From positions 711 through 64,710 of the forward strand of contig CAYNMM010000082.1 in NCBI GenBank assembly GCA_964398355.1: a stretch of DNA of 64,000 nucleotides, read 5' to 3'. The notes under the pieces were generated by a model that worked only from the letters and a program-made list of their open reading frames with translations, searched no databases and had not been told where the DNA came from. This document shows positions 16,657 through 48,775 of this stretch, one piece after another (position 1 is the first letter of the stretch; every line of letters begins with the position of its first letter). The position numbers were made by a program, and so were the translations under genes. This DNA comes from an uncultured bacterium. Its GTDB lineage: Bacteria; Hydrothermota; Hydrothermia; B15-G9; WFZT01.

Positions 16657-16657
16657 A

Positions 16658-18181
16658 ATGGATCCCGGGAAGATTGTATTAACTGGCATGATGTGCAGTG
16701 GCAAAACCACTGTGGGTAAACTACTTTCAAAAATTCTCGGTTGGACTTTTATTGATACGGATTATTTAATTGAGAAAAAGGTTGGCAGGAAAATTCCACA
16801 TATTTTTGAAATAGACGGAGAGAGAGTATTTAGACAGTATGAAAAAGAAGTTATTTCAGAAGTAGTGCGTCTAAAAAATGTAGTCATTGCAACAGGTGGT
16901 GGGGCTGTCCTTGATGAGGAAAACTTTAGATTATTACAGAAAGATTCGCTGATGGTGTATCTGCATGCAACAACAGATGAACTTGTGAAAAGGTGTAAAA
17001 AACAAGCATATTTGAGACCACTTCTTAAAGCAGATGCAGAAAAAAATATCAAATCAATTCTCAAGAAGAGAGAATCGATTTACTCACAGGTTCCGATTCA
17101 TGTAAAGACTGATAGAATAAAACCAGAACTGATAGCTCAGAGGATTCTGTATTATATTGATTTTAAGGATAAAATGAGAATTGATGGTATTGAGAATATC
17201 TTTGTAGAACCTGGGGGGATCACGAAGATCCCGGGATTTGTGGAAGGCAGACGGATTTTTGTTATTCAAAAAAAAGTGTGGAAGATTTTTAGAGATCTAT
17301 TCAGAGGCGAGGATGTTGTAATTATCCCTGATGGTGATATAGCTAAAGGGATGGGGGTTGCAAAAAAATTATATAAATCTTTGATGAAATCAGGTATAGA
17401 TAGGGATGGAACTCTTGTGTCTGTAGGTGGTGGAGCGGCTTCAGACCTTGGAGGATTTGTCGCTTCGACTTACAAGAGAGGGATCAGGTTTGTAAATGTT
17501 CCCACGACTTTACTTTCTCAGGTAGATGCTGGAATAGGAGGCAAAAATGCATTGAATTTTGGAGGAGTAAAAAATGTTATTGGAACATTTTACCACCCAC
17601 TCAGAGTCTACATTGATCCTTTGACCTTGATTTCTCTCGATTCACGCGCGTACAGGCAGGGATTTGCAGAGATCATAAAATCTGCCATCATCGGGGATCC
17701 TCCCCTCATTGATTTTCTTGAAAAACACACAGAAGAATTACTCAACAAGAATATCCCCCTACTTTCTCAGGTCATTTATAGAACTGTTAAGATTAAGATG
17801 AATATTGTTAAAGATGATTTTGAAGAAAGATCAGGTAGAAGAAAACTACTTAATCTCGGACATACATTCGGACATGCCTATGAAGTTTCTCTGGGTATTT
17901 ATCATGGAGAAGCCGTGGCACTTGGCCTTGTTAAATCTCTTGAAATAGGGATGAAACTCGGATTCACTGACCAGAGATTTGCGAGCAGGATCATAACCCT
18001 TCTTGATAAGTTTAAATTGCTGAATAAACTATCAGATGTAGAAAGTCTTGATCGAGATTTACTGGCTGAAAAAATTGCCCACGATAAAAAGATGAAAGAC
18101 GGAAAAATTGATTTCGTGATCCCGGTGTCACCGGGCAAAGTTATTATCAAGTCTCTGACCATAAATGAAATTTTTGCCTGA
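16658..18181 (+). CDS. aroKB: Bifunctional shikimate kinase / 3-dehydroquinate synthase (AroK-AroB fusion)
   Basis: N-terminal ~170 aa with Walker A GMMCSGKTTVGK (shikimate kinase). A DHQ synthase core follows (GGGAASDLGGFVASTYKRGIRFVNVPTTLLSQVDAGIGGKNALN, metal-binding HTFGHAYE). It is a single 508-aa frame. Confidence 0.85.
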   Translation: MDPGKIVLTGMMCSGKTTVGKLLSKILGWTFIDTDYLIEKKVGRKIPHIFEIDGERVFRQYEKEVISEVVRLKNVVIATGGGAVLDEENFRLLQKDSLMVYLHATTDELVKRCKKQAYLRPLLKADAEKNIKSILKKRESIYSQVPIHVKTDRIKPELIAQRILYYIDFKDKMRIDGIENIFVEPGGITKIPGFVEGRRIFVIQKKVWKIFRDLFRGEDVVIIPDGDIAKGMGVAKKLYKSLMKSGIDRDGTLVSVGGGAASDLGGFVASTYKRGIRFVNVPTTLLSQVDAGIGGKNALNFGGVKNVIGTFYHPLRVYIDPLTLISLDSRAYRQGFAEIIKSAIIGDPPLIDFLEKHTEELLNKNIPLLSQVIYRTVKIKMNIVKDDFEERSGRRKLLNLGHTFGHAYEVSLGIYHGEAVALGLVKSLEIGMKLGFTDQRFASRIITLLDKFKLLNKLSDVESLDRDLLAEKIAHDKKMKDGKIDFVIPVSPGKVIIKSLTINEIFA

Positions 18182-20583: not shown

Positions 20584-20612
20584 TTGACAATTGGGTTTTA
20601 TGAATTTAAAAT
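20584..20612 (+). promoter_or_regulatory. Sigma-70-type promoter upstream of exbB (TTGACA-N17-TAAAAT)
   Basis: TTGACAAT at 20584-20591, a 17-nt spacer, then TAAAAT at 20607-20612, about 40 nt upstream of the exbB ATG. Confidence 0.55.
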
Positions 20613-20650: not shown

Positions 20651-21289
20651 ATGCAAGGACTTGTTGAATATTTCAATAAGGGCGGTTCAATGATGTGGTT
20701 ACTCCTCATCCTGGCTATACTTGGAACCGTAATCATCATAGAGAGAATCATCACATTGCTCATTAAAGCAAGCACTAACCCAAGAAAACTTGTGGAAAAA
20801 GTCAAGACATTAATAGAAGAAGATGGCATTGATGCCGCAGTTGAATATTTGCAGAAAAATAAAAAGCCTATTGCAAAAGTTTTGCTTGCAGGACTTGAGA
20901 AAGTTCATAGGGGGAGAACAGTTGTTGAGGAAGCTATGGCAGCAAAAGCTTCCGCAGAAATGGGTTTTCTTGACAGAGGCATGATCTATCTTTCAGCAAC
21001 AGCGACCCTTGCACCAATTATCGGATTCTTGGGAACTGTTACTGGAATGATCAAAGCATTCCAGGCTATAGCACTTGCTGGTGAGGTGGAGCCAACACTG
21101 GTGGCTTCGGGTATTTCTGAAGCATTGATTACAACGGCTTCAGGTCTTTTAATAGCAGCTCCAGTATCTCTTTTTTATGCAATTTTCCAGTCAAAAATTA
21201 ATGGATATTCCAGGGCAACTGAAGAAGCTGCCAACGAACTTATTGAGTATTTACTCGAAAAAGAATATATTAAAGAAGAAAAAGCCTGA
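20651..21289 (+). CDS. exbB: MotA/TolQ/ExbB proton-channel family protein
   Basis: 212 aa with three transmembrane helices and the MotA/TolQ/ExbB C-terminal core (ALITTASGLLIAAPVSLFY). Confidence 0.85.
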   Translation: MQGLVEYFNKGGSMMWLLLILAILGTVIIIERIITLLIKASTNPRKLVEKVKTLIEEDGIDAAVEYLQKNKKPIAKVLLAGLEKVHRGRTVVEEAMAAKASAEMGFLDRGMIYLSATATLAPIIGFLGTVTGMIKAFQAIALAGEVEPTLVASGISEALITTASGLLIAAPVSLFYAIFQSKINGYSRATEEAANELIEYLLEKEYIKEEKA

Positions 21290-21303: not shown

Positions 21304-21723
21304 TTGGCAATCTTTAGAAAAAGCAGGCCTCCTGAAGAAGCTGAAATCCCGACTGCTTCCATGGCAGATATAGCATTCCTGCTGATCATTTTTTTCATGA
21401 CTACCACAATATTTGCAAGAGATAAAGGTCTTAAACTTGTCTTGCCTGAGAAAACAACTGAAATTGTTAAAATAAAATCAAAAAACATTATAAAAATCTC
21501 TATCAATGATCAGGGGCAAATATTTGTAGGAGATAAACAGGTCACACTTGATCAAATCCAGCCTATTCTGAAAGAGAGACTTGCGAAGAACCCCAAGCTG
21601 ATAATTCTGATTAAGACACACGAGAAGGCACCTTACGATCGGATGATTCAGGTCTTTGACCAGGTGAAACAGGTGCCAGAAGCCAAAAGAGTGGCTCTCG
21701 GTATGATAAAAGCCGGAGGTTAG
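21304..21723 (+). CDS. exbD: ExbD/TolR biopolymer transport protein
   Basis: Single N-terminal transmembrane helix (IPTASMADIAFLLIIFFMTTTIF) plus a periplasmic domain; 139 aa. Confidence 0.85.
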   Translation: MAIFRKSRPPEEAEIPTASMADIAFLLIIFFMTTTIFARDKGLKLVLPEKTTEIVKIKSKNIIKISINDQGQIFVGDKQVTLDQIQPILKERLAKNPKLIILIKTHEKAPYDRMIQVFDQVKQVPEAKRVALGMIKAGG

Positions 21724-21728
21724 AAGAG

Positions 21729-22139
21729 ATGAAAATCGAACGGAAAAGAGAAATGAAAGTTAATATTCCCACTGCTTCAATGTCAGATATTGCTTTCCTG
21801 CTCCTTATCTTCTTTATGGTAACGACTGTCTTTAGAAAGGAAATCGGCCTAAAAGTTATCCTGCCAACCGCTAAAACGACCGAGCGCTTGATTAAGCAAA
21901 GGGACCTTGCTCATATCTATATTGATAAGGATGGTAGAATATCTGTCGATGATAAGATTGTTACACCAGAACAGGTGAAAGTAGCGTTTAAGATTAAACT
22001 TGCTGAGAACCCCTCAACGATTGCTTATATAAAAGCTGATAAAAGGGTCGAGTATAAATATGTAAATGAGGTAATGGACGCCCTACGAGATGCTCAGGCT
22101 TTCAGAGTGGTATTTGCTACCCTTTATCCCAAGAAATAA
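21729..22139 (+). CDS. exbD: ExbD/TolR biopolymer transport protein (second copy)
   Basis: A paralogue of the preceding gene (IPTASMSDIAFLLLIFFMVTTVF); 136 aa. Confidence 0.85.
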   Translation: MKIERKREMKVNIPTASMSDIAFLLLIFFMVTTVFRKEIGLKVILPTAKTTERLIKQRDLAHIYIDKDGRISVDDKIVTPEQVKVAFKIKLAENPSTIAYIKADKRVEYKYVNEVMDALRDAQAFRVVFATLYPKK

Positions 22140-22202: not shown

Positions 22203-22853
22203 ATGAGTGAGAAAGAAAAAAAGAACCTATCCCTTGAGGATGAGTATGGCACAAATGTTTTGCTATCCTTGGGGATAGCACTTGCCTTATTTATAGCAAT
22301 TTTCGCCGGGATTAAAAAAGTTGAAGTAAGCCCTTATAAGCCAAAATCTGAAGTTACAACGATAGTTGAGGAAATAAATACGCAGGTGGAAGAGTTGAAA
22401 GAACCTCCTCCACCACCTAAACCTAAATTGCCCGTTGAAATTAAGGAGTCAAATGAAGTTTCTGATGAAGAGGAGAATCAGCAGGAAGAGCAGGAAATAG
22501 ATTTTTCTCCAACAACTACATTTAATGAGCTTGAGGCACCACCTCCGCCAAAAGTGGAGAAGACGTATGAGTTTTTCGCTGTCGAAGTTAAGCCAAAGGT
22601 AGTGAAACAGGTTGAACCTCAGTATCCTGATCTTGCGAGGAAAGCCGGGATTGAAGGTAGAGTATTTGTTAAGGTACTTGTAAACGAACAGGGGAGAGTA
22701 GATTCAGTTGTAGTTCTTAAAGCCACAAATCCAATTTTTATTAAACCAGCAATTGCGGCAGCTAAACAATTTGTTTTCACTCCTGGCAGGCAGAGGGATA
22801 AACCCGTAAAGGTCTGGGTGGCAATACCTTTTATCTTTAAACTTGAACAGTGA
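22203..22853 (+). CDS. tonB: Energy transducer TonB
   Basis: N-terminal transmembrane anchor, a Pro-rich spacer (EPPPPPKPKLP...APPPPK) and a C-terminal TonB domain (VEPQYPDLARKAGIEGRVFVKVLVNEQGRV); 216 aa. Confidence 0.85.
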   Translation: MSEKEKKNLSLEDEYGTNVLLSLGIALALFIAIFAGIKKVEVSPYKPKSEVTTIVEEINTQVEELKEPPPPPKPKLPVEIKESNEVSDEEENQQEEQEIDFSPTTTFNELEAPPPPKVEKTYEFFAVEVKPKVVKQVEPQYPDLARKAGIEGRVFVKVLVNEQGRVDSVVVLKATNPIFIKPAIAAAKQFVFTPGRQRDKPVKVWVAIPFIFKLEQ

Positions 22854-22877: not shown

Positions 22878-25800
22878 ATGCCCGTTAAAAAGTTAGTGGG
22901 AGTAATCTTGGCGTTAGGTGTGTTGTTTCAGCTTAATGCTGGAACAACGGGAAAAATAATGGGGAGAGTAATTGACGCAAAAACGAAGGAGCCCCTCCCC
23001 GCTGCAAATGTAATGATTGAAGGTACTAATATGGGAGCAGCTACAGATGTAGATGGTTACTATGTAATTCTAAATGTTCCCCCTGGTACATATACTCTTA
23101 AAGTTACATATCTGGGCTACAAAGAAAAAATCATTGAAGGTGTCCAGGTTAATATTGATAGAACAACTGAAGTTAATATTGAAATGGAGCCTGCTGTCTT
23201 GAAAACCAAAGAGGTGGTTGTTAAAGCTAAGAGACCGATAATTAAGAAAGACGTTACAGCAAGTGTAAATATTATCAGTAGTAAAGACATTAGCAATATT
23301 CCAGCTGTTAATAACGTTCAGCAAGTTGTAGCTCAGCAGGCAGGTGTTATTCTGGGTAGAGGAGGAGATTTACATATTAGAGGTGGTAGACAGGATGAGG
23401 TCGTATATATCATCGATGGTGTTGTAGTTAGGGATCCTTATGGAGGAGCAACTTTTGGGGCAGTTCCATTGCTATCACTTGAAGAGACTGAAATTAGTAA
23501 AGGTGGATTTGATGTTGATCAGGGATCAGCAGCGTCCGGTGCCATTTCAATTGTTACAAAAGAGGGACGTGATAAATATGCGATTAATCTGGCTTTAACA
23601 ACACATGACTTTTCATTCCTCGGAGATAAGGGATATGCATTTTTTGATAGAAATATTGGAGATCCCTATCTGGATTTTCTAACAGGAAAGAATCTTGATC
23701 TCACTTCCCTGGAAAATAGACATAGAGATCAGATGAAAAGGCTGGAATTCTCGTTCAGTGGGCCTTTTATCCCTTCTTATAGAAAAGGTCCCAAATTTTT
23801 CGTCTCAGGAGATATAACTTACGATAAAGGAAGATTCCCTGTATCCAATGACCCAGATTGGTATAATAAGAGTTATACTTATCAGTGGAAGTTTACGTTC
23901 CCTTATAAATCCATAAAGCTTTTCTATAGCGGTTTTCGTAGAACGAGACATGATGGTGGAGGGTATAGCGCAACATGGAGGTTGGCTCTTGATCACCAGA
24001 CATATTATGATGAGGAGCTAATGCAACATGTATTTGGAATTAATTATTTGATCACGCAGAGATCCTATCTGGAAGTTAGAGTGGGATTGTTCAAGGATTA
24101 TTTCTTGTATAATGATAAAGAGGATGTTGATGGCGATGGTGTAGATGACTTTGCTGATCGTGATAAAGATGGATTCATAGAGATTGATAAAAGTTATTTT
24201 GTAGATTCTCTTGGTAATTTTAGACGGGACATTCTTGATTCTCTATATCCTGGCTGGGAAGATCACGGGTCTTATGTTGAAGTTCCATATTATTGGTGGG
24301 AATCCAGAGTTGAGCAATTGTATCCTTCATTTGGTACCGGTCCTTCATGGTGGTCCAATGATTCGACAGGTCGCTATGCCCCTTATAACCACTTTGGTTG
24401 GGGGACAAGAGTACGTGTAGATATTTATGTTTTAGCTCTTGATAATGGTGACACAATTGCAATGATTAACAATAACTATTACACATTTCCGCTCAATGAT
24501 TTACCAAATCTAACACCTTATGTCCCACCTGATCCGACATGGACTACTGATTCAATTTCTGCTCATGTAGTTGATACAGTCCTTTTTGTCGGAAACCAGT
24601 ATATGCCGTTCAATTACGTATGGGATAGAAGTCAGTGGTATGAGGGTGAGAGTAAGTCTTTCAGTGTGAATGTAAGGTATACAAATCAGATCACAAGGCA
24701 TCACGAAATCCTGGCTGGCGTTGAATACAAGAGGAATGATATCGTTAGAGTAGGTGCTGATTACGCCAGTGGGGGGAATGTTTATTTAACACTCACAAAT
24801 CCATGGTACACAATAAGGAATAGATTTCCTCAGGATACGGCATACAATTTCTTGAAATGGTATAGAGATCACAAGATTTATCCTTGGACTTTCGCTGCCT
24901 ACTTGAGAGATAAGATAGAGATCGAAGGGATGGTTGCAAAGGTGGGGTTTAGATTTGATTACTTTAATCCGGATGGCTGGGTTATAAGCGATACTGCTAA
25001 TCCTTTTATGAGTGATCCTGAATGGGGTAATTTAGGGATTAAAATGATGAGAGATCCTAAGAAGGCATCTCCTAAATGGTATATTAGTCCAAGGATCGGT
25101 GTGTCCCATCCAATATCTGATAGAGATCTCTTACATTTCACTTATGGCCATTATTTCCAGATCCCCACGTTTAATACTATGATTAGAGATTTTGCATTTT
25201 CCGGTGCTTTCCCAATAATTGGAAATTCTGATATCGATCCAGAGAAAATAGTCTCTTATGAATTCGGTGTTAAGCACGCTTTCACTGACAATTTCGCTAT
25301 TGATGTGACAGCATACTACAAAGATATCCGTGACTGGGTTAGAATAAAACAGTTTAGTTATGGAATATCAGCAAACTACTCAACTTATGTAAATGAAGAT
25401 TACGGTTCATCCAGAGGAATAGAATTACAGATTTTGAAGAGACCTGGTGGTCGTTATCTCCCTAACATAGGAGTAAATATTAATTACACCTTCCAGGTTG
25501 CTCGTGGAAGTTTCTCAAGTCCCAGAAACGCTTATGACTGGATGTGGAGAGGCTATCCTTTACCCACACATGAATCACCACTTGATTGGGATGAAAGACA
25601 CCATGTAACAGCTACTGTAATGTATCTGGTAGGTAATAATGGCATACTGGGTGGGAGACTGAGGAACTTTGGTGTAATACTTCATTATCTATATGGAAGT
25701 GGATTCCCGTATACACCACCAATCAGGACAGAAAGGGATGCAGTGGAAAAGATAAATTCTGAGAGACTGCCAGCATATTCACGCACTGATTTAAGAATAT

Positions 25801-26006
25801 ACAAAGATTTTGGATTCAAGCTTCTTAAGGGGAAGATATATATTGATATAACAAATCTATTTAATAAAAAAGAACTCAGGACGTTCAATGATGTTAATAC
25901 ATATTATGTGCTTCATGAACCTGAAGGTGAGGTGAAAAATCCAACAGTGTGGTATCCGAGAAGGCAGACGACCCTTGGAATTCAATTTAGTATTAAAGGG
26001 TTTTAA
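22878..26006 (+). CDS. TonB-dependent outer-membrane receptor with an N-terminal carboxypeptidase-regulatory-like domain (SusC/RagA-like architecture)
   Basis: Signal peptide, then a CarbopepD_reg-like domain (GKIMGRVIDAKTKEPLPAANVMIEGTNMGAATDVDGYYVILNVPPGTYTL). A plug domain follows, then a long beta-barrel ending in an aromatic residue (…SIKGF); 1042 aa. Confidence 0.85.
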   Translation: MPVKKLVGVILALGVLFQLNAGTTGKIMGRVIDAKTKEPLPAANVMIEGTNMGAATDVDGYYVILNVPPGTYTLKVTYLGYKEKIIEGVQVNIDRTTEVNIEMEPAVLKTKEVVVKAKRPIIKKDVTASVNIISSKDISNIPAVNNVQQVVAQQAGVILGRGGDLHIRGGRQDEVVYIIDGVVVRDPYGGATFGAVPLLSLEETEISKGGFDVDQGSAASGAISIVTKEGRDKYAINLALTTHDFSFLGDKGYAFFDRNIGDPYLDFLTGKNLDLTSLENRHRDQMKRLEFSFSGPFIPSYRKGPKFFVSGDITYDKGRFPVSNDPDWYNKSYTYQWKFTFPYKSIKLFYSGFRRTRHDGGGYSATWRLALDHQTYYDEELMQHVFGINYLITQRSYLEVRVGLFKDYFLYNDKEDVDGDGVDDFADRDKDGFIEIDKSYFVDSLGNFRRDILDSLYPGWEDHGSYVEVPYYWWESRVEQLYPSFGTGPSWWSNDSTGRYAPYNHFGWGTRVRVDIYVLALDNGDTIAMINNNYYTFPLNDLPNLTPYVPPDPTWTTDSISAHVVDTVLFVGNQYMPFNYVWDRSQWYEGESKSFSVNVRYTNQITRHHEILAGVEYKRNDIVRVGADYASGGNVYLTLTNPWYTIRNRFPQDTAYNFLKWYRDHKIYPWTFAAYLRDKIEIEGMVAKVGFRFDYFNPDGWVISDTANPFMSDPEWGNLGIKMMRDPKKASPKWYISPRIGVSHPISDRDLLHFTYGHYFQIPTFNTMIRDFAFSGAFPIIGNSDIDPEKIVSYEFGVKHAFTDNFAIDVTAYYKDIRDWVRIKQFSYGISANYSTYVNEDYGSSRGIELQILKRPGGRYLPNIGVNINYTFQVARGSFSSPRNAYDWMWRGYPLPTHESPLDWDERHHVTATVMYLVGNNGILGGRLRNFGVILHYLYGSGFPYTPPIRTERDAVEKINSERLPAYSRTDLRIYKDFGFKLLKGKIYIDITNLFNKKELRTFNDVNTYYVLHEPEGEVKNPTVWYPRRQTTLGIQFSIKGF

Positions 26007-26020
26007 TGGAGGTTTTTGAC

Positions 26021-28075
26021 ATGAGGAAATTATTCATTATAGGGATATTTTTGGTGGGGATTTCTTTTGCGAGAGACAAAGGAATATCTCAGTATCAAAT
26101 TAAAGGCACGAGACCTTCAGATAAGATAATCAATCAAACGGTTGGACAGGTGTGGAATTACTTATCAAATTATGGGTCTCTTGGGGGTCAGGCGGGAGCA
26201 GATTATTATGGATTAAGCTGGCCTGGTGGTGCAGCTGTAAATAATTACTATCTATGGAACAGTTATTTTACAGTTGGGGCAAAGGTAGAAGGTACTCCTT
26301 ACATTTCCTACTATAATTATTATTTCTCGAACTGGAGCCCCTCGGATAATCCACCTATCTACGCCGGTCCAGGTAAATCTCCCTTTGATGTAGTTATGGC
26401 CTTTGATGACTTCAAAGACAGTCCGAGGCAGAGTCCGGGTAATCATCTTGGTGTTAAAGTGATTATTAGAAGTATGCAATGGCCGCAACCCCCCTATAAT
26501 AATTTTGTGGCTTATGAATTCTATATAACCTATGATGCTTCACAGTGTGATATTCCAGGCCATACGGATGTTCTACATGATGTCTTTATCGGGATGTGGT
26601 ATGACTGTGATGTTTCGGGAGCCGATCCAACAGAGCCACATATTGATGACCTTGTGTGTTTTGATGGGTGGACAAATGGAGAATGGGCAGATCTTGCGAA
26701 TTTCCCATCTCCTTCTGACCATCTGACAATCCTCCCGGATTCTGTAATCGACCAGCCAGATGGAGTTCCTGATCAATATATAATCTGGGGAGATGAACCT
26801 GGAGAGCTTGTTCTTGATTCTTCTCTTGCGGTTCCTTATGTAAGAAATGATACAACGTATATGGTTTACATTTTCCCACGCGGAGCATCATATATTTATG
26901 ACGGGGATAACCCTGCAGATCCTGGTGATGATACAGGAGAACACGGTATGTCTGCGGGTTATGTAGGTGGCATGTGGATTTATACTCCTCCATCTCCATC
27001 AGACTCTGTAATAGGTGATGCAAGGTTTGTTAGACCTTGGGCACATCAATGGTGGAACTGGAGTAGTGACCCTGCGACTCCAACAGATATTTATAATTAT
27101 TTAAGAGGGCATCATTCTGCAACAAAGTTTTACAGATATGCCCCTCATCCGTTTGATCTTGGAGCAGGCCCTTTCGATTACAGATTCCTGAACAGTGTGG
27201 GTCCATTCAACATAAGGAGTGGCGATACGCTCAAATTCGTATGGGTTGCTGGTGTAGGTCAGGGTTTAAGCGGAGGTTATGATTCATACTGGGGTAGAGG
27301 GTGGCTTCCTGGTTTGAGACAGGTTCTTGATGATGCTCTAAAAGCTTATTATGCAGGCTCAACTCATTCTGATCCGGCACATCCCTCAGCACCAGATGAA
27401 GATCAGCACTGGAGAATTCCGGTTCCTCCACCATCACCGCTCCTTGTATACTCTGTAACTTCTGATGGTATAAGACTGGTATGGGATGATCTCCCTGAGA
27501 GGACACCTGATCCATTGAAGGGTTATCCGGATATGGTTGGATATATTGTATATAGAGCTGTATATCAGCCGATAAACTGGACTGTCCTTGACACCATTAA
27601 AAGAAATCCAGACGGCACATTCACTCACACATATCTTGATACAACGGCTATTCCTGGATTTCAGTACTATTATGTGGTCACAGCTTATGATGAAGATAGT
27701 CTCGAATCTTCCAAGAATAATTATATGAAGGACGAGAATGGGAATCCGATGTATGTTACCATGAAATCCAAGATTGGTCGAAGCGTCGATGATGTGACGG
27801 TTGTACCTAATCCATATAAGGGCTCTGCCCCGTGGACAGCGACTGAGATAGCAGATAAGGTTGAATTTATTAATCTTCCTTCGACGTGTAGAATCACTAT
27901 TTATACACTTTCAGGATACAAAGTTAAAACTCTTGAGAATAAGGAAGGTAAAGGTTCTCTTGCCTGGAACTTATTGACAGATGCTGATATTAAAGTTCAG
28001 AGTGGAATATATATTTACAAGGTTGAGACCCCGGATGGCAAATATAAATTAGGGAAATTGGTAATTTTGAAATAA
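26021..28075 (+). CDS. Hypothetical secreted protein with an FN3-like region and a C-terminal T9SS sorting domain
   Basis: The start is placed at MRKLFIIGIFLVGISFA (signal peptide), 7 nt downstream of GGAGG. The protein is rich in W/Y/P/D. The C-terminal ~80 aa match the Por secretion tail pattern (VVPNPYKG...ITIYTLSGYKV...SGIYIYKVE...KLVILK). I recognise no catalytic motif. Confidence 0.7.
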   Translation: MRKLFIIGIFLVGISFARDKGISQYQIKGTRPSDKIINQTVGQVWNYLSNYGSLGGQAGADYYGLSWPGGAAVNNYYLWNSYFTVGAKVEGTPYISYYNYYFSNWSPSDNPPIYAGPGKSPFDVVMAFDDFKDSPRQSPGNHLGVKVIIRSMQWPQPPYNNFVAYEFYITYDASQCDIPGHTDVLHDVFIGMWYDCDVSGADPTEPHIDDLVCFDGWTNGEWADLANFPSPSDHLTILPDSVIDQPDGVPDQYIIWGDEPGELVLDSSLAVPYVRNDTTYMVYIFPRGASYIYDGDNPADPGDDTGEHGMSAGYVGGMWIYTPPSPSDSVIGDARFVRPWAHQWWNWSSDPATPTDIYNYLRGHHSATKFYRYAPHPFDLGAGPFDYRFLNSVGPFNIRSGDTLKFVWVAGVGQGLSGGYDSYWGRGWLPGLRQVLDDALKAYYAGSTHSDPAHPSAPDEDQHWRIPVPPPSPLLVYSVTSDGIRLVWDDLPERTPDPLKGYPDMVGYIVYRAVYQPINWTVLDTIKRNPDGTFTHTYLDTTAIPGFQYYYVVTAYDEDSLESSKNNYMKDENGNPMYVTMKSKIGRSVDDVTVVPNPYKGSAPWTATEIADKVEFINLPSTCRITIYTLSGYKVKTLENKEGKGSLAWNLLTDADIKVQSGIYIYKVETPDGKYKLGKLVILK

Positions 28076-28090
28076 ACAGGAGATAGTGTC

Positions 28091-29074
28091 ATGAAGAGGG
28101 TTTTAATAATTTTATCGATAGTCTTTCTGATTACATTGCCCAATGCTCTTACTGCCCAATCCAAAGTTGGTACCGCTGGAGCTAATTTTTTAGCGGTGCC
28201 TATTAATCCTGTTGCAATGGGTATGGGGGGAGCTTATGTTGCAGTTGCAGATGGTCCTTTAAGCAGTTTCTGGAATATAGCTGGAGTTGCGAATGTTAAA
28301 GATAATCTTGCCACTGGATTTGGTTATGTCAATTATGTGGCAGGAATTAACATTGGTGGTTTTGGTGTTGTTAAGAAGTTAGGATTAAGAGGTAACATTG
28401 CTTTCTTTGTCGGTGGATTAAACTCAGGTAGTATGGATAAATACAGTATTTCTCAAGATAGGGGAATTATAAATGAAGGTACGTTTACTTATTCAAGTGA
28501 ACAAATTGGTATAGGATTTGCCAGATACTTTACCGATAAGTTTGCCTCAGGTGTTGCGGTAAAATTAATCCATGAGAGTGTTAGTGGAGAAACAAGCTCA
28601 CTTGGATTTGCTGTTGATGTTGGAACCTATTTCTGGACTGGATTCAAAAGTCTACGAATCGCAATGTCTATGCAAAATATTGGTCCGGATATGAAATTTA
28701 GCGGAACCTATAAACAATACATTTACTCCGGTAATGAGGTAGTTACTGAAGATAGGGAATATAATTCGTATCCGATTCCTCTTAATTTCAGACTTGGAGC
28801 TGCTATGGAGATTATAGATCAACCAGATAAACGTTTAACAGTTTCAGTTGAGAGTAATCATCCCAGTGATTTTGATCAGACCTTTGCTGTAGGAGCAGAG
28901 TTTGCATTCAGGAATATGCTCTATTTGAGAGGAGGATATAATTTTGGATTAGACCTTGGTGGTCTTGGTCTTGGTTTTGGAATTAAATTGAAGTCAATTT
29001 CTTTTGATTACGCGTATTCTGACATGGGTGAGTGGCCTGATGTCCATAGGATCTCAATAAACTTTGTCAAATAA
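28091..29074 (+). CDS. PorV/PorQ-like outer-membrane beta-barrel protein (probable T9SS-associated)
   Basis: Signal peptide, then a conserved N-terminal segment GTAGANFLAVPINPVAMGMGGAYVAVADGPLSSFWNIAG of the kind seen in PorV/PorQ-family proteins. The rest alternates G/aromatic beta-strands; 327 aa. Confidence 0.5.
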   Translation: MKRVLIILSIVFLITLPNALTAQSKVGTAGANFLAVPINPVAMGMGGAYVAVADGPLSSFWNIAGVANVKDNLATGFGYVNYVAGINIGGFGVVKKLGLRGNIAFFVGGLNSGSMDKYSISQDRGIINEGTFTYSSEQIGIGFARYFTDKFASGVAVKLIHESVSGETSSLGFAVDVGTYFWTGFKSLRIAMSMQNIGPDMKFSGTYKQYIYSGNEVVTEDREYNSYPIPLNFRLGAAMEIIDQPDKRLTVSVESNHPSDFDQTFAVGAEFAFRNMLYLRGGYNFGLDLGGLGLGFGIKLKSISFDYAYSDMGEWPDVHRISINFVK

Positions 29075-29080
29075 AATGGA

Positions 29081-30220
29081 GTGGGAATTATGAAAAGGTT
29101 AACAGGTATAGGAATTATTTTAATTGCTTTAGCGTTTGTAGGGTGTGGCGTGAAAAATAATCCTCCTACAGGACCTTCTGTAATTGACAGAGGGGCTGAC
29201 TATTTTAATGAACAGGGTTGGCTGAAGTATAGTCAGGGGGATTATTATGCTGCAAAGGCAAATTTTGACACTGTGTTAAGCATGATTTCTCCTGAGAATA
29301 TAGATGCTTATCTCGGTATTTCAATGGCCATGAAGCAGATTGGTGAATACAGTAGAGCTCATGGTTATGTAACTATGGCTATTACAGTTGCCAACCAGGA
29401 GAGACAGGTGATAGAAAAATTGAGGAAATTCCTTGTGCAAACTGTGAGTCCTATTAACGATACACTTGCATGGATGACTTTTGATACGACAAATATCGCC
29501 TTTGTTAATAAAATGGAAATTTCAGTAACCCTTGCAAATACGAGATACCATAATCTGGATTCAGCTGCGGTTTATGATACATTATACGGTGGGCCGGCTG
29601 GCGCGAAGATTTACTTTAAGGTAATGAGTTACAGCTTTGATGGTGATTCAGTGCTTATTTCATGGGACAATGAGAAGAACTTTACTTCAAACACTACGTA
29701 TTTTTACGAACGCACAGATTTACCACCAGACAGTATGTCCGTGGACACAACTTTGTATTTACCTGATAGCATAGTAGTTGATACAACTTATTATTATCCT
29801 ATAGATACCCTTCAGCTCGTTCGTTGTTTACCCCTCCCCGGTGATACGGTTGTTGCTAATGTGGCGTATGTTATTGGGGGTAATAATGACGTAGAGAATG
29901 CTGCTCATATAGTAGATGGTGCCGTCTACTTCGCTGCCGGTGATTATCTGAATGCGATAAAATGGATGAGAGCCAGTATGTTGATGAGTGATAATTTTGC
30001 ATATAATGCTCCGTATGCGGATTCACTCCCAGGAAAACTTATAAACACAAGAAACGCCAAGATTCTATTAGCACAGTCTTTTTACAATCTCGGTATGTAT
30101 AGGGATGCAGCCTATGTGGTCAATAATCTTTATGGTCGAATCGTTGTAGATCCTGAAAACCCTGATATTCATCTTTTATTTAACAGCATTGTGGAATTGA
30201 GAAACCAGGGAGGTCTATAA
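29081..30220 (+). CDS. TPR-like lipoprotein of unknown function
   Basis: Lipobox ALAFVGCG. The N-terminus has TPR-like helices (QGWLKYSQGDYYAAKANFDTVL...AYLGISMAMKQIGEY); 379 aa. Confidence 0.55.
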   Translation: MGIMKRLTGIGIILIALAFVGCGVKNNPPTGPSVIDRGADYFNEQGWLKYSQGDYYAAKANFDTVLSMISPENIDAYLGISMAMKQIGEYSRAHGYVTMAITVANQERQVIEKLRKFLVQTVSPINDTLAWMTFDTTNIAFVNKMEISVTLANTRYHNLDSAAVYDTLYGGPAGAKIYFKVMSYSFDGDSVLISWDNEKNFTSNTTYFYERTDLPPDSMSVDTTLYLPDSIVVDTTYYYPIDTLQLVRCLPLPGDTVVANVAYVIGGNNDVENAAHIVDGAVYFAAGDYLNAIKWMRASMLMSDNFAYNAPYADSLPGKLINTRNAKILLAQSFYNLGMYRDAAYVVNNLYGRIVVDPENPDIHLLFNSIVELRNQGGL

Positions 30221-30221
30221 A

Positions 30222-33200
30222 ATGAGAAGGGTTCTATATTTCTTCATCAGTATCTCCTTTGTTTTTATTGGGAGAATGAACGCCCAGCAATTTTCGGTAG
30301 GAGATACAGCCACTTTTAAATACTATGACGCAGGATTCTTTAGCGGTTTTTATACTGCAAAATATTTGTGTAGAGCTGTCACAGATAATGCATACATATT
30401 TAGCGAAGAGGTTCCATATCAAATAACAAAAGTCTACGTGGGTAATGGCCAGGTCATAGTTTTCGATCCCGCTAAGAAGTACTATCGCAAATTAAATGAT
30501 AACGACGTATTTTCTATTTTCGGTTATTCTGAGGATACGACATCATTGATCTATAACCTGAATCACACCGGGAAAGCTGCAATAAAACTTCTTAGAACGG
30601 GTGGTATTCAATTTTATACAGTGACGACGCAAGGATTATACCTTTATAACGTTTCTAATTGGTCCCTCAGATTGCCAAGACGTGATCTTGTTGATGTTGC
30701 CGTTTCTCCTAAAGTTCCTACATCTATAATAGGGTATTTCCCGTATTTCCTTGCAAAATATTCAATACTTACCACACTGAGAACGCCTTTAGGCAGAGTA
30801 ATCAAGTTGCCTCATGACCTCTTTATCGATGATGGATTTGAACCCGATTATTCCGAAGATACTTTACTTACTGATTGGACAACATCAGGAAACGTTAGCG
30901 TTGTCAGGTCTATTTTAATTTCCATACCCCACTATTTGATGCACCTCTCTGGGAATGCCAGTGCTTCAAAGTCATTTTCCTTACCAGCTACTATGTTTAA
31001 ATTTGAAATAACCCCAGTAATCACCCGCAACACTCCTGATGGTGTTGTTAGTTTCGAGGATCAATCCGGCACTTCAGCATTTTCTCTTACGTTCTTAGGT
31101 GATTCACTATTTTTGAATGGCAATAATTTGGGTGAATTCCAGCCATATAGTGTGCAGAAGATTGAGGGTGTCGTTAATATAAATGATGGATTATTGCAGA
31201 TTTATTTGAATGACTCCCTCGTCTACGATGATTCGAACTATACATTTGATGTCTCTCAGGTGTCCAAATTACAGATTTCATTAAATAGTGGTGAGCTGTT
31301 TTTAGATGACATCGCTGCTCAACCTATCGTATATACTATTGTTGGACATCATTCTAACAAGAACGCTTTTTATCTTGGTGCTGCGGATGGGCTTTATTTA
31401 TATAACTCTGGCACCTGGTCGAAAATTTATGACGGAAATGTGAGAATTGTGAGGCCAGTTAGTGACAACACTGTCTACATATTGTCTGATAATCTTATAT
31501 TGAAGACTGAGGATGGTGGAGCGAGCTGGGATACGTTGCCATCAACTACACTTGACTCAGTATATGATTTTGCGGTAAATCCTGATAATACTGACTTGTT
31601 GGTTGCTGTGGGAGTACCAGGAATTGTTAAATTTGCAGATGGTAGCTGGCAAAATATATCCGACTCTTTACTCAATTGGTCACCTCCAGAATTTGTTGAT
31701 ACAATTTACTCCGTTGGCTATTTAGATGATTCTACTATTGTTATTGGTACAGGACAGGGTGTTTTTATGAGTGAGGGAACCATTGAAAATCTTGTTGAGA
31801 AAAATAAAGGTATCTTAAAGAGTTTTATCACGAATGATGGTGTACAGTTGCTTGCTCAATATGTGGATAGTGCGTATACGACTATGAACACTTTCTTTGA
31901 TGGACTTGCAAGGGATGTGGATAATGATCCCAGAGTTTACGTGCTTGCAGGTGACTTGTCTGCAAAGCTTACCTCCGGGGAGACCAAAATTATTCCCATT
32001 CTCGGTGTCATGAATCCTGAACTGAATTATGTAGAGGATGCCAATCATCCACATGGCGATGGTCATGAAATAATAGAGATTGATGTGTATGATGATAGTT
32101 TAAATCAGTACGTTTCTTCAGCTTATGAGACCTGGAAATATGCGACTTATAGAGCAATGGCCAAACTGTTTTTCTGGACGCATGATACTAAGGAGGAGAA
32201 CTGGTTAATTGAAGGAATCGGGGGACTTGGTGAATACCTTGCAAAATACAATCCAGGTGATCCAGATACCGCAGAATATGAATTGAGCCCCCTTTATAGC
32301 TTGAAAAAAATCTTGGTAACTCCTTATAAGGTTGATCAATACGTTGCCAGTTTAAATAGACCATATCTCTTCCTTCTCCATTTATGGGCGAAATATGGCA
32401 TTCAGACACTACAATCTATTTATTCAGACGCAACTATTCCATCATCAGTTGTGGGATTAGCAAGAATAGCAAGAATTACTGGAGTCGATCAAAACGATCT
32501 TTATAAAGAATGGATTCTGGATGTATTTAAACATGAGAATATGGATCTCACACCTAATTTGAATGTTAATCTTATCGAAAGGTTGTTCCCTCCTTATTAT
32601 TCCACGATACAGTCATTATCTGATTGGTCATTCGGTGGATTTCAAATAGTGTTGACACAAAATGATACTCTCAATTATCTGAGATTTAACGGTGTCAATA
32701 TTAATGATTCAAGTGAATTTGATGTTTATTATGGGATCAGTGGTGGTACTCTCCACCATGTAACAGATTGGGGAGCTAATGGTGATAGAGTAATAACAGG
32801 ACTGACGAATACACAAGACACAACGGTATATAACTTCATTGTATTTTTTGCTGATAGTCAATTGTCTGACAATACTGCACTTTCTTATGCTGTTAAGAAG
32901 GATACAATTCCACCAACGGTGGATGTTGGTTATTTCCAGAATAGCCTTGCTGATAGGAATATTAATGTTTATTTATTTACAAATGAGCGGTTATTCGATG
33001 AGGTTATTGACACCATACCATCTCTTTATCTTATTTCAGGTCTTGATACAACGACAGCAGATCTCTCAATCTTCGACTCTTATAACGATACAATTATTTA
33101 TTCTTCAAACTTTACTCTCTCAAGTACCGGTAAGATTTATCTCAAAGCATCGCTACAAGATTTTGCTGGAAATGCAGTAGAAATAAGTGATTCTGTCCTT

Positions 33201-33830
33201 GCCTGGTATTTGCAGAGCGGTAGCAAACTCACTTTCACTGGATTTGATGGTGAAATATTACTCGAAATACCGGAAAACGCGATCTCAGTAGGGGGTTATG
33301 CTATTTACTCTATCTCAAATGGTGGTTTCTATAAAGTCTCCAATCCGGTTTATGTCTTCCCAAATGTACAGCTGAAATCGCCTGCTCGTGTGGAGTTAAA
33401 TTTGCCCAATGATGGAAAGAAAGATTATCACGTTTATGTCTGGTACAAAGGAACCTGGCATGACGCTGGTGGAATGCTGACGCCATCTGGAGACAGAATA
33501 GTTGCTTATATTAATACTCTTGGCCCATTAACATTGATGCAGACAAATGGTATTATACCACGGAGGTTTGCGTTTAAGCTTCTGGGCTCTCCAGTGATTC
33601 TCTCTAAAAAAGTATCCTTTGAGGTCTCTGTCCCTCATCCTACAAAGTTGAGCGTAAAAGTATACAACTTAAGTGGTAGAGAAGTCGCAAAATTGTTCGA
33701 TGGTAACATTAGTTCTGGTAAGTACAACTTTAGCTGGAGGGTTGAAAGTTTGCGTAATGGAGTATATTTCATTGTCGTAAAAGATTTGAGGAGTGGCGTA
33801 AGATTTTCTAAAAAAGTTGTAAAGTTTTGA
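30222..33830 (+). CDS. Large hypothetical secreted protein (1202 aa) with a BNR/Asp-box-like repeat and a C-terminal T9SS sorting domain
   Basis: Signal peptide MRRVLYFFISISFVFIGRMNAQQ. Asp-box-like TEDGGASWDT. C-terminal Por tail (KLSVKVYNLSGREVAKLFDG...NGVYFIVVKD...KVVKF). Confidence 0.7.
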   Translation: MRRVLYFFISISFVFIGRMNAQQFSVGDTATFKYYDAGFFSGFYTAKYLCRAVTDNAYIFSEEVPYQITKVYVGNGQVIVFDPAKKYYRKLNDNDVFSIFGYSEDTTSLIYNLNHTGKAAIKLLRTGGIQFYTVTTQGLYLYNVSNWSLRLPRRDLVDVAVSPKVPTSIIGYFPYFLAKYSILTTLRTPLGRVIKLPHDLFIDDGFEPDYSEDTLLTDWTTSGNVSVVRSILISIPHYLMHLSGNASASKSFSLPATMFKFEITPVITRNTPDGVVSFEDQSGTSAFSLTFLGDSLFLNGNNLGEFQPYSVQKIEGVVNINDGLLQIYLNDSLVYDDSNYTFDVSQVSKLQISLNSGELFLDDIAAQPIVYTIVGHHSNKNAFYLGAADGLYLYNSGTWSKIYDGNVRIVRPVSDNTVYILSDNLILKTEDGGASWDTLPSTTLDSVYDFAVNPDNTDLLVAVGVPGIVKFADGSWQNISDSLLNWSPPEFVDTIYSVGYLDDSTIVIGTGQGVFMSEGTIENLVEKNKGILKSFITNDGVQLLAQYVDSAYTTMNTFFDGLARDVDNDPRVYVLAGDLSAKLTSGETKIIPILGVMNPELNYVEDANHPHGDGHEIIEIDVYDDSLNQYVSSAYETWKYATYRAMAKLFFWTHDTKEENWLIEGIGGLGEYLAKYNPGDPDTAEYELSPLYSLKKILVTPYKVDQYVASLNRPYLFLLHLWAKYGIQTLQSIYSDATIPSSVVGLARIARITGVDQNDLYKEWILDVFKHENMDLTPNLNVNLIERLFPPYYSTIQSLSDWSFGGFQIVLTQNDTLNYLRFNGVNINDSSEFDVYYGISGGTLHHVTDWGANGDRVITGLTNTQDTTVYNFIVFFADSQLSDNTALSYAVKKDTIPPTVDVGYFQNSLADRNINVYLFTNERLFDEVIDTIPSLYLISGLDTTTADLSIFDSYNDTIIYSSNFTLSSTGKIYLKASLQDFAGNAVEISDSVLAWYLQSGSKLTFTGFDGEILLEIPENAISVGGYAIYSISNGGFYKVSNPVYVFPNVQLKSPARVELNLPNDGKKDYHVYVWYKGTWHDAGGMLTPSGDRIVAYINTLGPLTLMQTNGIIPRRFAFKLLGSPVILSKKVSFEVSVPHPTKLSVKVYNLSGREVAKLFDGNISSGKYNFSWRVESLRNGVYFIVVKDLRSGVRFSKKVVKF

Positions 33831-33861: not shown

Positions 33862-36087
33862 ATGAAGAAGTATAAAGTGTTAGGTCTAATAGCTGCTCTG
33901 ATGTTCGTTGTTGGAACATCGAGAGCTGAGCTCGCTATCCTGACACCGGTGAATTCCAAAACGGGCCACAGTGATATTATCCCACTGAAAGATGCCAGAA
34001 AGGTGTCAGCTTTTATGCACAGTATACAGGCTAAGGGAGTGATAGACACCATTTCCTATTTCGATGTGAACAGTTTCTATATATATTCAGGTATAGATGT
34101 TGGTGATACAATGGTTGAGTGGTTTAAATCGGTAGCGGCATGTTCACTCCAGGCTGCTTACATGTATGTATTGAACAAGTATACTGCAAATAGTCAGGCA
34201 TACTTCTTCGTCTCTGGAGTTCCTGATTCACTTGCGCCAGTGTTTGATTCAACGTGGTATTATGGGATTGGACATCACTGGTATGACTATCACTTTGGTG
34301 CATCTTACTCTCTTCCTCCTGGTCCCTCTCCTATTGCGTATGATTCTGTATATTATAGCACAACTGTAAATGTCACTGGAGATACTTTGTTTTTACTCGG
34401 TAATTCTCTTCCGAACGCAGTTGATGTAGGAACGAAACCATTCCTTGTGGGATTCACACCTCTTACAGATGGGAGTGGTAGTTCTGATGAGCCCTGGGCA
34501 ATTATCAGTGCTGGTGCAGCTGGAAATAATTACGGATATCATGCCCTTGTATATCAACAGGATTTTGGTTCATCTTTCCCTGGAGCATCCCCTGGATGGT
34601 ATGCTAACTGGCATACATATTGGGCATACGCCATAGTTAATATTTATGAAAACCCGGCTCCATTCATCAATTCCGTTACGAAGTTACCCTGGACTTACGA
34701 CCTCGATGGTCCATTTACCATTCAGGCAGATTTGAATGATTTTGGTGTCCCTTCTGATTCATCAGGAGTTGCTTATGCAGAACTGGAAGTTTGGGTCGGC
34801 TCAGATGCCACTGATACTCTCCATATCCCAATGACGCTCGTAAGTGGAGATTCTACAGCAGGAATATGGCAAGCAGTTTATACACCTTCGACTGCTTTGA
34901 ACGTTGGTGACACTGTATTCTACACAGTAATGGCAAGAGATGTTCAGGGAGCTGAATCATACTATAGTCATATCTATTTCTTCTCCACGCTTCAGCAGAC
35001 CACAAACCAGATTCTTTATGTACTTGATGCAGGTGCAGCTACAAGGGATAGGGATGTAGATTTTGCCTCTGTATTCCAGGCATTGGGTTATCAGGTTGAC
35101 GTGTACGATGCTTATCATTGGGGTTCACCAGATGCGACTGTTCTCCTTGGTCAAGGTGGATATTCCCAGCCTTATCAGATGGTTTTCTGGACAGGTTGGG
35201 GAAGTGGAGCTTTCGCTGCTGACACAGCTTTAATTGCCCAGTATCTCGACAATGGTGGAAAACTTGTAATCTCTGATGAAGATTTTGTCGTTGGTGGATT
35301 TGGACTTGGAGACTATGGTCAGTGGACTGACATACCAGAGGGAAGTTTCCTTTACAACTATCTGAAGATCGCTTCCGTATTTGATGATTATGTTGGTACA
35401 TCCCCTGATGATGGAGGATACACTGCAAACTCCGATACAATTATCAGCCTCACTGGAGAGGCAACGAATCCAGTTGGACAGGCTTTCGCTAACGATTCAA
35501 TAACACTCTATCCTTACGCTCATCAGGTCGACAGTACAACCTACGGCAGTTACAACTACGTCGGTGCTGTGATTAATAATGGTGAAGCAAGTGATGCATT
35601 CTATATGCCTGATGGAACCCCAACAGCTATTACTTACAATGGTACATACAGAGCTGCAGTTCTTTATTGGCCATTCACTTATCTTGTTGACTCTGTGACT
35701 GTTGATACATCAGGTGCTGTAACAGGATTTGTTTATGATCAAACAAGGACACAGACACTTATGTCAGCACTCATAAACTTCCTCACTACTGGAGTTGCAG
35801 AATCCAATCCTACTCCGGTGAATGGGCTGAAACTTGCTGTAAGGAACAACCTTGCCCTTAACGGAAAAGTTTCCATAAGCTTTGCTATTCCTACGGCTGG
35901 TAAAGTGGATGTTTCCGTATTCGATGCGTCTGGAAGGAAAGTGACAACACTGTTTAGTGGAAATCTCAATAAAGCCGGACTGTACACTACGCACTGGAAT
36001 GCAGATGGTGTAAGACCAGGTGTGTACTTCGTGAGATTGCAGACGAATGCAGGTTCTCTCACAAAGAAAGCGATGATCCTTAAGTAA
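33862..36087 (+). CDS. Hypothetical secreted protein (741 aa) with a C-terminal T9SS sorting domain
   Basis: Signal peptide MKKYKVLGLIAALMFVVGTSRA. The central region has a GATase1/ThuA-like flavour (GGKLVISDEDFVVGG). C-terminal Por tail (KVDVSVFDASGRKVTTLFSG...PGVYFVRLQTNAGSLTKKAMILK). Confidence 0.7.
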   Translation: MKKYKVLGLIAALMFVVGTSRAELAILTPVNSKTGHSDIIPLKDARKVSAFMHSIQAKGVIDTISYFDVNSFYIYSGIDVGDTMVEWFKSVAACSLQAAYMYVLNKYTANSQAYFFVSGVPDSLAPVFDSTWYYGIGHHWYDYHFGASYSLPPGPSPIAYDSVYYSTTVNVTGDTLFLLGNSLPNAVDVGTKPFLVGFTPLTDGSGSSDEPWAIISAGAAGNNYGYHALVYQQDFGSSFPGASPGWYANWHTYWAYAIVNIYENPAPFINSVTKLPWTYDLDGPFTIQADLNDFGVPSDSSGVAYAELEVWVGSDATDTLHIPMTLVSGDSTAGIWQAVYTPSTALNVGDTVFYTVMARDVQGAESYYSHIYFFSTLQQTTNQILYVLDAGAATRDRDVDFASVFQALGYQVDVYDAYHWGSPDATVLLGQGGYSQPYQMVFWTGWGSGAFAADTALIAQYLDNGGKLVISDEDFVVGGFGLGDYGQWTDIPEGSFLYNYLKIASVFDDYVGTSPDDGGYTANSDTIISLTGEATNPVGQAFANDSITLYPYAHQVDSTTYGSYNYVGAVINNGEASDAFYMPDGTPTAITYNGTYRAAVLYWPFTYLVDSVTVDTSGAVTGFVYDQTRTQTLMSALINFLTTGVAESNPTPVNGLKLAVRNNLALNGKVSISFAIPTAGKVDVSVFDASGRKVTTLFSGNLNKAGLYTTHWNADGVRPGVYFVRLQTNAGSLTKKAMILK

Positions 36088-43360: not shown

Positions 43361-43625
43361 TATACAAATCTTGAATATTCATACATCATCCTGAAAGACA
43401 TGATTGATGTTAGGTGTGGGAGATGGTTAAAAAATTACATTCTTCCTTTACCCTCTAAATCGATTTTTCCAACAACCCTCAGGAGGACTTTTTAAGATGC
43501 ATTTAAACAGAGAACTCACGTGTCAATTACTGACCTTCCTGCTCAGTATTTCGATAGATTTGTTTATAGTGGAGTTAATCAGGACAAATGTAAATTCAGA
43601 AAGAATTCTCTATAATTCTAAAACT

Positions 43626-48774: not shown

Positions 48775-48775
48775 T

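Follow-up and report, generated by a model that had tools for sequence, protein, structure and literature searches.

A PorV/PorQ-family outer-membrane barrel encoded with a TonB-dependent receptor and a secreted protein in an uncultured Hydrothermota bacterium

What does a PorV/PorQ-like β-barrel do when its gene lies among genes for type IX secretion system (T9SS) cargo, and does it serve all of that cargo or one protein in particular? The question is raised by a gene at positions 28091–29074 (+ strand) of a 64-kb stretch of DNA from an uncultured bacterium of the Hydrothermota (contig CAYNMM010000082.1; the whole of this stretch is referred to here as the window), which encodes a protein of 327 amino acids that we call the barrel. 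An earlier annotation of the sequence, the original prediction, had placed this protein in the PorV/PorQ family and had proposed that it is a cargo-specific shuttle to the attachment complex. Among the known barrels of this kind, PorV is the general carrier for cargo with type A C-terminal domains (CTDs) and PorQ is the anchor of PorZ; the related SprF/PorP barrels are carriers for type B CTDs.

The ORF (open reading frame), profile searches and a structure model all identify the barrel as a member of this family, and its gene is linked across phyla to genes for a TonB-dependent receptor (TBDR) and a secreted protein, X, which has a distinct sorting tail. Gene context and sequence similarity lead us to favour, with a probability of roughly 45%, a reading in which the barrel would be a dedicated T9SS carrier and anchor, keeping X next to its TBDR so that X would be a functional counterpart of SusD.

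Family and fold of the barrel

The ORF at 28091–29074 is real, as is the N-terminal motif that the original prediction had quoted. The ORF starts at an ATG codon with a ribosome-binding site (AGGAG) 8 nt upstream, and its product is divided into a typical Sec signal peptide (amino acids 1 to ~23; ...PNALTA/QS), a hatch (amino acids ~27–70) and a barrel part (amino acids 73–326). The motif, GTAGANFLAVPINPVAMGMGGAYVAVADG...FWNIAG, aligns with the N-terminal hatch of PorV from Flavobacterium johnsoniae (residues ~25–70). FWNIAG is the local version of the family consensus FWNPAG, i.e. the NPA motif of the FadL superfamily with the proline replaced by isoleucine. NPA is kept in most homologues of the barrel, with NIA or NVA in the window protein and its nearest relatives, and Asn62 of the barrel is invariant across the 58 homologues that were aligned.

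Searches with hidden Markov models supported the family assignment. The barrel scored 179.5 bits against the NCBIfam PorV/PorQ family model NF033709 (cutoff 90; E 1.2e-52) in a full-length match that paired amino acids 28–325 with profile positions 1–324 of 326, and the same model was matched by all 58 of the aligned homologues. The Pfam PorV model PF19572 was also passed (33.1 bits; cutoff 27). When a profile of the 58 homologues was searched against PDB sequences, PorV (6h3i_F) was matched at E 2.6e-32 and FadL relatives at 1e-3 to 1e-4. Identity to F. johnsoniae PorV is 18%, and the barrel is ~60–70 residues shorter than that protein, which has its additional residues between the equivalents of positions 252 and 261. 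The family membership as such is already known, in that the gene would be annotated automatically as 'PorV/PorQ family protein'.

The barrel did not reach the cutoff of any of the three equivalog models for named members of the family: PorV (NF033710; 63.6 versus 250 bits, over amino acids 18–256 only), PorQ (NF033711; 97.5 versus 220 bits) or PorV2 (NF052325; 55 versus 325 bits). None of its 58 relatives came close to these cutoffs either, the best PorQ match among them having an E-value of 1.5e-33. The barrel therefore ranks PorQ above PorV, and its length is PorQ-like. There was no match at E ≤ 1 to the PorP/SprF family model TIGR03519, which one of the 58 relatives matched weakly (3e-6), nor at E ≤ 1 to the FadL/TodX Pfam model PF03349; some homologues carry precomputed PF03349 matches or the JGI label 'long-subunit fatty acid transport protein'. 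The BamG model NF053685 was matched by only four of the 58 relatives, at 1e-7.

The AlphaFold model of the barrel, calculated with the 58 homologues, is a confident FadL-type barrel (mean predicted local distance difference test score, pLDDT, 92.4; predicted template modelling score 0.84). In a Foldseek search the best solved structures, 8gl6_F and 6h3i_F, were both of PorV from the translocon of F. johnsoniae (E 1.8e-15, template modelling (TM) score 0.72), followed by FadL, TbuX, TodX and CymD with TM scores of ~0.6 and, more weakly, by BamG (9hjm_F and 9hiv_F) with ~0.5. The DSSP string of the model contains 18 β segments, which were parsed from the string and not from coordinates as 14 strands plus a hairpin (amino acids 206–223); the hairpin was placed in a long extracellular loop and varies by insertion and deletion among the homologues. 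Three conserved motifs (GPDMK...YPLP, HPxD and SDMGxLPDxHR) were assigned to extracellular loops in this topology, likewise parsed without coordinates, and such a placement would fit a conserved external partner. Searches with hidden Markov models, sequence profiles and folds thus agree that the protein belongs, as had been predicted, to the PorV/PorQ family of outer-membrane barrels and has the FadL-type fold.

The receptor, X and the barrel as a conserved cassette

The description of the barrel gene as embedded among T9SS cargo genes was borne out: three large flanking ORFs, X (689 amino acids; 26006–28075), Y (1202 amino acids; 30222–33830) and Z (741 amino acids; 33862–36087), all exceed the 23-bit cutoff of the type A sorting-domain model TIGR04183, with scores of 26.3, 27.1 and 37.0 bits respectively. 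What had been overlooked is that a TBDR of 1042 amino acids (22878–26006) and a full ExbB–ExbD–ExbD–TonB set are encoded directly upstream. The barrel is gene 7 of this tightly packed operon, in which all genes lie on the + strand and the gaps from the receptor to Z are 1–31 nt. Within the window as a whole, the PorV family and the X family are each represented by a single gene.

Homologues of the barrel were found in WOR-3, Hydrothermota, KSB1, Krumholzibacteriota, Marinimicrobia and other groups. The gene neighbourhood was analysed in 75 loci taken from a scan of one genome per species, with search patterns derived from 18 of the closer barrel sequences, and the ORFs of these loci were searched with the window proteins and profiles; the source genome, which belongs to the FCB group and is closest to MAGs (metagenome-assembled genomes) of WOR-3/Hydrothermota, is not itself a species representative, and its nearest relative in the scan is at 65% identity. 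The loci derive from WOR-3, Hydrothermota, Gemmatimonadota, Calditrichota, Zixibacteria, Ignavibacteria, KSB1, Krumholzibacteriia, Neomarinimicrobiota, Delongbacteria, Latescibacterota, Cloacimonadota and several metagenome-assembled genomes (MAGs) labelled Bacteroidota; at least 10 phyla of the Fibrobacterota–Chlorobiota–Bacteroidota (FCB) group. The full gene order (ExbB–ExbD–ExbD–TonB, receptor, a protein of ~700 amino acids, barrel, CTD proteins) was kept in loci with barrels at 65%, 49%, 46% and 40% identity, and a core of receptor, large protein and barrel persisted at 34% and 29% identity (KSB1 and Marinimicrobia). A 2.1-Mb metagenome contig, whose barrel is at 31% identity, has the receptor directly adjoining the barrel and X further upstream.

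Upstream DNA extends for more than 2.2 kb in 68 loci, and in all of these a receptor and/or an X homologue stood beside the barrel on the same strand; the remaining seven of the 75, with neither gene, are all on truncated contigs. The TBDR was next to the barrel on the same strand in 57 of the 75 loci. The commonest arrangement was receptor–X–barrel (33 loci), followed by receptor–X–barrel with an extra gene between X and the barrel (nine), receptor–barrel (seven), receptor–barrel with X at a distance upstream (five), barrel–receptor–X (two) and receptor and barrel at a distance (one); in a further 11 loci, mostly on truncated contigs, X adjoined the barrel and a receptor was not seen directly upstream. 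As the search patterns were built from the barrel alone, the linkage to receptor and X is not an artefact of selection. Pairwise distances for the barrel, the X CTD, the N-terminal part of X and the receptor all correlated in a mirror-tree comparison (r 0.80–0.95), indicating that the cassette is inherited as a unit. No gene for PorU/Peptidase_C25 and no sprA adjoined the barrel in any neighbourhood inspected.

Several loci depart from the common layout. Two from Neomarinimicrobiota (L082 and L085) have the order barrel–receptor–X–second receptor; an extra gene for ~1,300–1,500 amino acids lies between X and the barrel in L070, L073, L074 and L079–L081 (Delongbacteria and others); and ExbB–ExbD(–TonB) is downstream instead of upstream in five loci of Krumholzibacteriia (L059, L060, L064, L069 and L072). 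Two loci of a single MAG (L077 and L078) were considered as evidence for paralogues and set aside, as their barrels are 84% identical and could be strain variants.

X consists of a signal peptide, a β-rich N-domain of ~440 amino acids, an FN3 domain (amino acids ~475–585) and a CTD (amino acids ~596–689) which sets it apart from its neighbours. The X CTD passes the type A model as described above and falls below the cutoff of the Pfam sorting domain PF18962 (16.2 versus 27 bits). A profile built from the X CTD gave at least 56 bits on X-family proteins only in related loci, with other CTD proteins at 37 bits or less; in the window it left Y and Z unmatched even at E ≤ 10, and X-type CTDs occur once per cassette. 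In PDB sequence searches, the only matches of the X tail below E 0.01 were the CTDs of PorZ (5m11; 2e-4) and PorU (6za2; 7e-4), with the NucA CTD next at E 0.08. The C-termini of the NCBIfam PorU and PorZ models were also matched by X (PorZ, NF052228, at the CTD only). By sequence, then, the X tail is a distinct, PorZ/PorU-like subclass of the CTDs that pass the type A model. PorU and PorZ are the two T9SS proteins with uncleaved CTDs, which serve to bind PorV and PorQ (PMC10202324), and cognate PorV-like barrels have been proposed to protect such retained CTDs from cleavage (review, PMC10202324).

The tail is also the best conserved element of the cassette, as it has the lowest mean p-distance (0.62; barrel, 0.67; receptor, 0.71; N-terminal part of X, 0.76); when X is followed into distant phyla, it is the FN3+CTD end that can still be recognized. 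The X family is large: among sequences clustered at 50% identity, 1147 representatives match it at E ≤ 1e-30 and 6069 when the limit is relaxed to E ≤ 1e-10, many of them having only this end in common and differing in their heads. X paralogues with an ordinary PF18962 CTD and without FN3 were found in two cases; they are 54% identical to X over amino acids 1–472 and lie in unrelated neighbourhoods, with no receptor or barrel. One contig with such a paralogue (L089) also encodes, at 10298–14785, a protein of 1495 amino acids with Propeptide_C25, Peptidase_C25 and a CTD, which could be a gingipain-like protease or a candidate PorU-like sortase in that lineage.

The head of X has many invariant Asp, His and Trp residues. 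No convincing family match to this N-domain was obtained in Pfam, NCBIfam or PDB sequence searches, those of the PDB with X, Y and Z giving CTD matches only, and neither Pfam nor NCBIfam detected a SusD family match in X. In Foldseek searches with the AlphaFold model of X (pLDDT 87.9), amino acids 40–450 were not convincingly covered, the matches being mainly to tandem FN3 domains and to the C-terminal part of PorZ; the secondary-structure output showed no β-propeller signature and the N-domain no similarity to PorZ. The ATG at 26006 is doubtful as the start of X; the true start is probably the ATG at 26021, which is preceded at 8 nt by a GGAGG sequence and whose Met (MRKLF...) is where the alignment of homologues begins.

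The receptor has an N-terminal CarboxypepD_reg domain (a SusC-like extension), a plug and a barrel (PF13715, PF07715 and PF00593), and did not reach the cutoff of the SusC/RagA model TIGR04056 (91.8 versus 368 bits, N-terminal part only). Upstream of it, the operon encodes an ExbB/TolQ-type proton channel (20651–21289; PF01618, 99.5 bits), which has the same position in related loci L002, L004, L006 and L008; two ExbD proteins (21304–21723 and 21729–22139), identified as ORFs whose homologues match PF02472, those of the first being in the same four loci; and TonB (22203–22853; PF03544 TonB_C, 70.7 bits; TIGR01352, 54.4 bits). Between the barrel and Y lies a gene for a lipoprotein with weak tetratricopeptide repeat matches (29081–30220; lipobox ...FVGC), which has homologues in L002, L004, L008 and L023 and is a conserved member of the operon in WOR-3/Hydrothermota. 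The CTDs of Y and Z are of the ordinary type A, that of Z matching PF18962 as well (28.3 bits). Y has only four homologues (57–100% identity) in a database of 5.8 billion proteins, in contrast to the thousands of the X family, which points to a very uneven evolutionary rate within one operon; Y is a lineage-restricted cargo. Its homologues were considered as a clue to substrate and dropped, as the four are close relatives without functional names.

The best sigma-70-like match in the region (20584–20612, + strand; TTGACA-17-TAAAAT, 11/12) is a candidate promoter for the operon, 39 nt upstream of exbB; its position is suggestive only, and the scan of the region for promoter-like and terminator sites gave no excess over shuffled sequences.

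A proposed carrier for X, alternative readings and the rest of the window

How might the barrel act on X? We suggest that X would be exported across the inner membrane by Sec and then pass to the type IX translocon, from which the barrel, as its cognate carrier, would draw it by binding the X CTD with its conserved extracellular loops. PorV extracts type A cargo in this manner, and alternative carriers do so for type B cargo (PMC10994853). The tail would stay uncleaved and X would not be handed to the sortase; instead, the barrel would hold X non-covalently at the cell surface, as PorQ holds PorZ and PorV holds PorU. The head of X would then be positioned beside the co-encoded TBDR, where it may capture or process a substrate imported by the ExbB–ExbD–TonB system, so that a SusD-like role would be carried by unrelated proteins. 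Cognate carriers that later anchor their own cargo are established for type B CTDs (PMC10994853).

The proposal of a cargo-specific shuttle is thus partly supported: its direction appears to be right, but it is incomplete. What is conserved around the barrel is a cassette with TBDR and X and not cargo genes in general, and X is the only one of the three neighbouring cargo proteins with the special PorZ/PorU-like CTD. The barrel is more likely to be a dedicated carrier that doubles as a surface anchor for X and is tied to nutrient uptake; PorQ–PorZ or SprF–SprB offers a better parallel for this than the delivery of cargo to an attachment complex.

Several observations weigh against this proposal. 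Contact of the barrel with X and with the receptor is suggested by gene context and similarity, and the PorZ and PorU matches of the X tail are weak (E 1e-3 to 1e-4). Seven receptor–barrel loci had no detected X, and X lies several kb upstream in five others, so adjacency of X is not obligatory. The mirror-tree comparison showed no pair-specific co-evolution of barrel and X CTD once the receptor was taken into account (partial r = 0.02), a value that does not discriminate because the CTD, at 94 amino acids, is noisy. The control provided by paralogues with ordinary CTDs consists of two loci. No T9SS core genes (SprA/Sov, GldKLMN/PorKLMN or PorU) were seen in the 64-kb window, and the barrel could be the sole, general PorV of the organism.

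That last possibility is the strongest of the alternatives, and we consider it unlikely. The barrel would then be the type A carrier of all CTD cargo to the attachment complex, lying by chance in a highly expressed, cargo-rich uptake operon. This would agree with PorV in the SprA translocon being the closest solved structure, with the ordinary CTD cargo genes Y and Z in the same operon and with the presence of a single PorV-family gene in the window. Against it, the barrel is far under the PorV equivalog cutoff and scores better on PorQ, lacks the ~60–70 residues by which F. johnsoniae PorV is longer, and has no adjacent PorU/Peptidase_C25 gene in the neighbourhoods inspected. A general carrier would also leave unexplained a distinct CTD class that occurs once per cassette, and the linkage of the cassette over at least 10 phyla, which includes MAGs labelled Bacteroidota. 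In Bacteroidota, one would expect a canonical PorV and PorQ as well.

We give considerably less weight to the idea that the barrel and X are equivalents of PorQ and PorZ in an attachment complex, presenting the lipopolysaccharide (LPS) anchor to the sortase, with the transporter linkage being incidental or regulatory. PorQ is the best equivalog match of the barrel and of similar length, the X CTD is most similar to that of PorZ, and PorZ is the second fold match for X; the PorQ cutoff was missed by a wide margin (97.5 versus 220 bits), however, and both the PorZ model and the PorZ structure match the CTD region of X only, its head being unrelated. An attachment complex would offer no rationale for the TBDR linkage in 57 of 75 loci. 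The heads of X, moreover, vary widely across phyla as the tail is kept, which suits a range of substrate-handling heads better than one housekeeping role.

A FadL-type channel, importing hydrophobic or amphipathic compounds by lateral diffusion in parallel to the TBDR and binding no cargo, is similarly improbable: the superfamily fold (TM ~0.6 to FadL, TbuX, TodX and CymD), the FWNPAG hatch of most homologues and the PF03349 matches or fatty acid transport label on some of them speak for it, but the window protein has no PF03349 match at E ≤ 1, fits PorV/PorQ far better (2.6e-32 for PorV versus 1e-3 to 1e-4 for FadL relatives), has with its nearest relatives lost the proline of an NPA motif that FadL needs for transport (NPA-motif mutants N33A, P34A and delta-NPA were among the PDB entries matched), and would leave the X-type CTD unexplained.

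There is also a wider and more tentative proposal, which we regard as possible and somewhat less probable than the reading for this locus. Many phyla of the FCB group (WOR-3, Hydrothermota, Zixibacteria, Ignavibacteria, KSB1, Krumholzibacteria, Marinimicrobia, Delongbacteria, Calditrichota and Gemmatimonadota) may build TonB-dependent uptake machines with a T9SS-delivered partner that is held by its own PorV-family barrel; this would involve a third, previously unrecognized class of sorting tail with a cognate carrier, in a system that would parallel SusCD but have evolved independently of it. In the literature searched, no PorV-family barrel was described as linked to a TBDR, which is not proof that none has been published; the TBDR cassette, the X-type FN3+CTD tail and their spread across FCB-group phyla appear to be undescribed there. 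Such a system would join T9SS and TonB-dependent transport, which are normally studied apart, and would show how bacteria without SusD-type surface lipoproteins position a protein for substrate handling above their transporters. It would also make the FN3 and X-type CTD signature a predictor of secreted proteins that are kept barrel-anchored as opposed to released or LPS-linked, and would define a concrete three-protein complex in lineages that are largely uncultured yet abundant. Should the barrel be no more than a general PorV in these organisms, the finding would be one of ordinary annotation.

The remainder of the window consists of housekeeping genes, and tRNA and Rfam scans of it were empty. 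A gene pair at 48034–49960 (– strand) comprises mannosyl-3-phosphoglycerate synthase (PF09488, 486 bits) and, overlapping it by ~70 nt, a HAD-type phosphatase; together these form the two-step pathway to the compatible solute mannosylglycerate, which is typical of thermophiles and halophiles. Genes at 39099–40439 and 43497–44519 (+ strand) encode between them an archaeal-type phosphoglucosamine mutase (450.6 bits on TIGR03990, which has a cutoff of 439) and a TtuA-type tRNA 2-sulfurtransferase similar to that of Pyrococcus (306.7 bits). Neither enzyme is usual in bacteria, and the two may point to a host that is thermophilic and deep-branching. Shikimate kinase is fused to 3-dehydroquinate synthase in a single ORF of 514 amino acids (16637–18181, + strand). 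A further fusion of 549 amino acids (9646–11295, + strand) has uridine kinase as its C-terminal half and ~280 N-terminal amino acids without assignment, and an ORF of 779 amino acids (11292–13631, – strand) has only a weak Glucosamine_iso match (24 bits, below cutoff).

Comparison with known systems

PorQ–PorZ of Porphyromonas gingivalis combines a small PorV-family barrel (~330 amino acids) with a surface protein tethered by a retained CTD (PMC10202324), as is proposed for the window pair, and it is PorQ that is the best equivalog for the barrel and the PorZ CTD that is the best PDB match for the X tail. The window barrel nonetheless lies below the PorQ cutoff, the N-terminal part of X is unrelated to the two β-propellers of PorZ, and the window pair is linked to a TBDR instead of to sortase machinery and is found mostly outside the classical Bacteroidota.

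PorV (LptO; 6H3I and 8GL6) is the closest solved structure, with the same hatch motif and FadL fold, and its extracellular loops bind the CTD (PMC10994853). By comparison, the window barrel is shorter and only distantly related in sequence, has no porU neighbour, and is linked to one distinct CTD class where PorV serves all type A cargo. In SprF–SprB and PorP–PorE, a dedicated barrel encoded beside its cargo gene recognizes a distinct CTD class and then anchors the cargo (PMC10994853, PMC10202324). The logic of a dedicated carrier would be the same as that proposed for the window barrel, although SprF and PorP belong to another barrel family (TIGR03519), the X CTD passes the type A and not the type B model, and the window barrel has no gliding context.

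BamG of the Bacteroidota β-barrel assembly machinery is a FadL-fold barrel of 14 strands that acts as an attachment platform for surface proteins and not as a channel (PMC12578637). It is among the fold matches to the window barrel, but the similarity is much weaker (TM ~0.5, with NF053685 matched by four of 58 relatives) and there is no BamA context.

SusC/SusD shares with the window the order of transporter followed by surface partner and a receptor with the SusC-like CarboxypepD_reg extension; the likeness of X to an extracellular substrate-handling partner would be one of function. The window receptor fails the SusC/RagA model, and where SusD is an α-helical lipoprotein, X is β-rich with an FN3 domain and a CTD and would be displayed via T9SS and the barrel in place of a lipid anchor.

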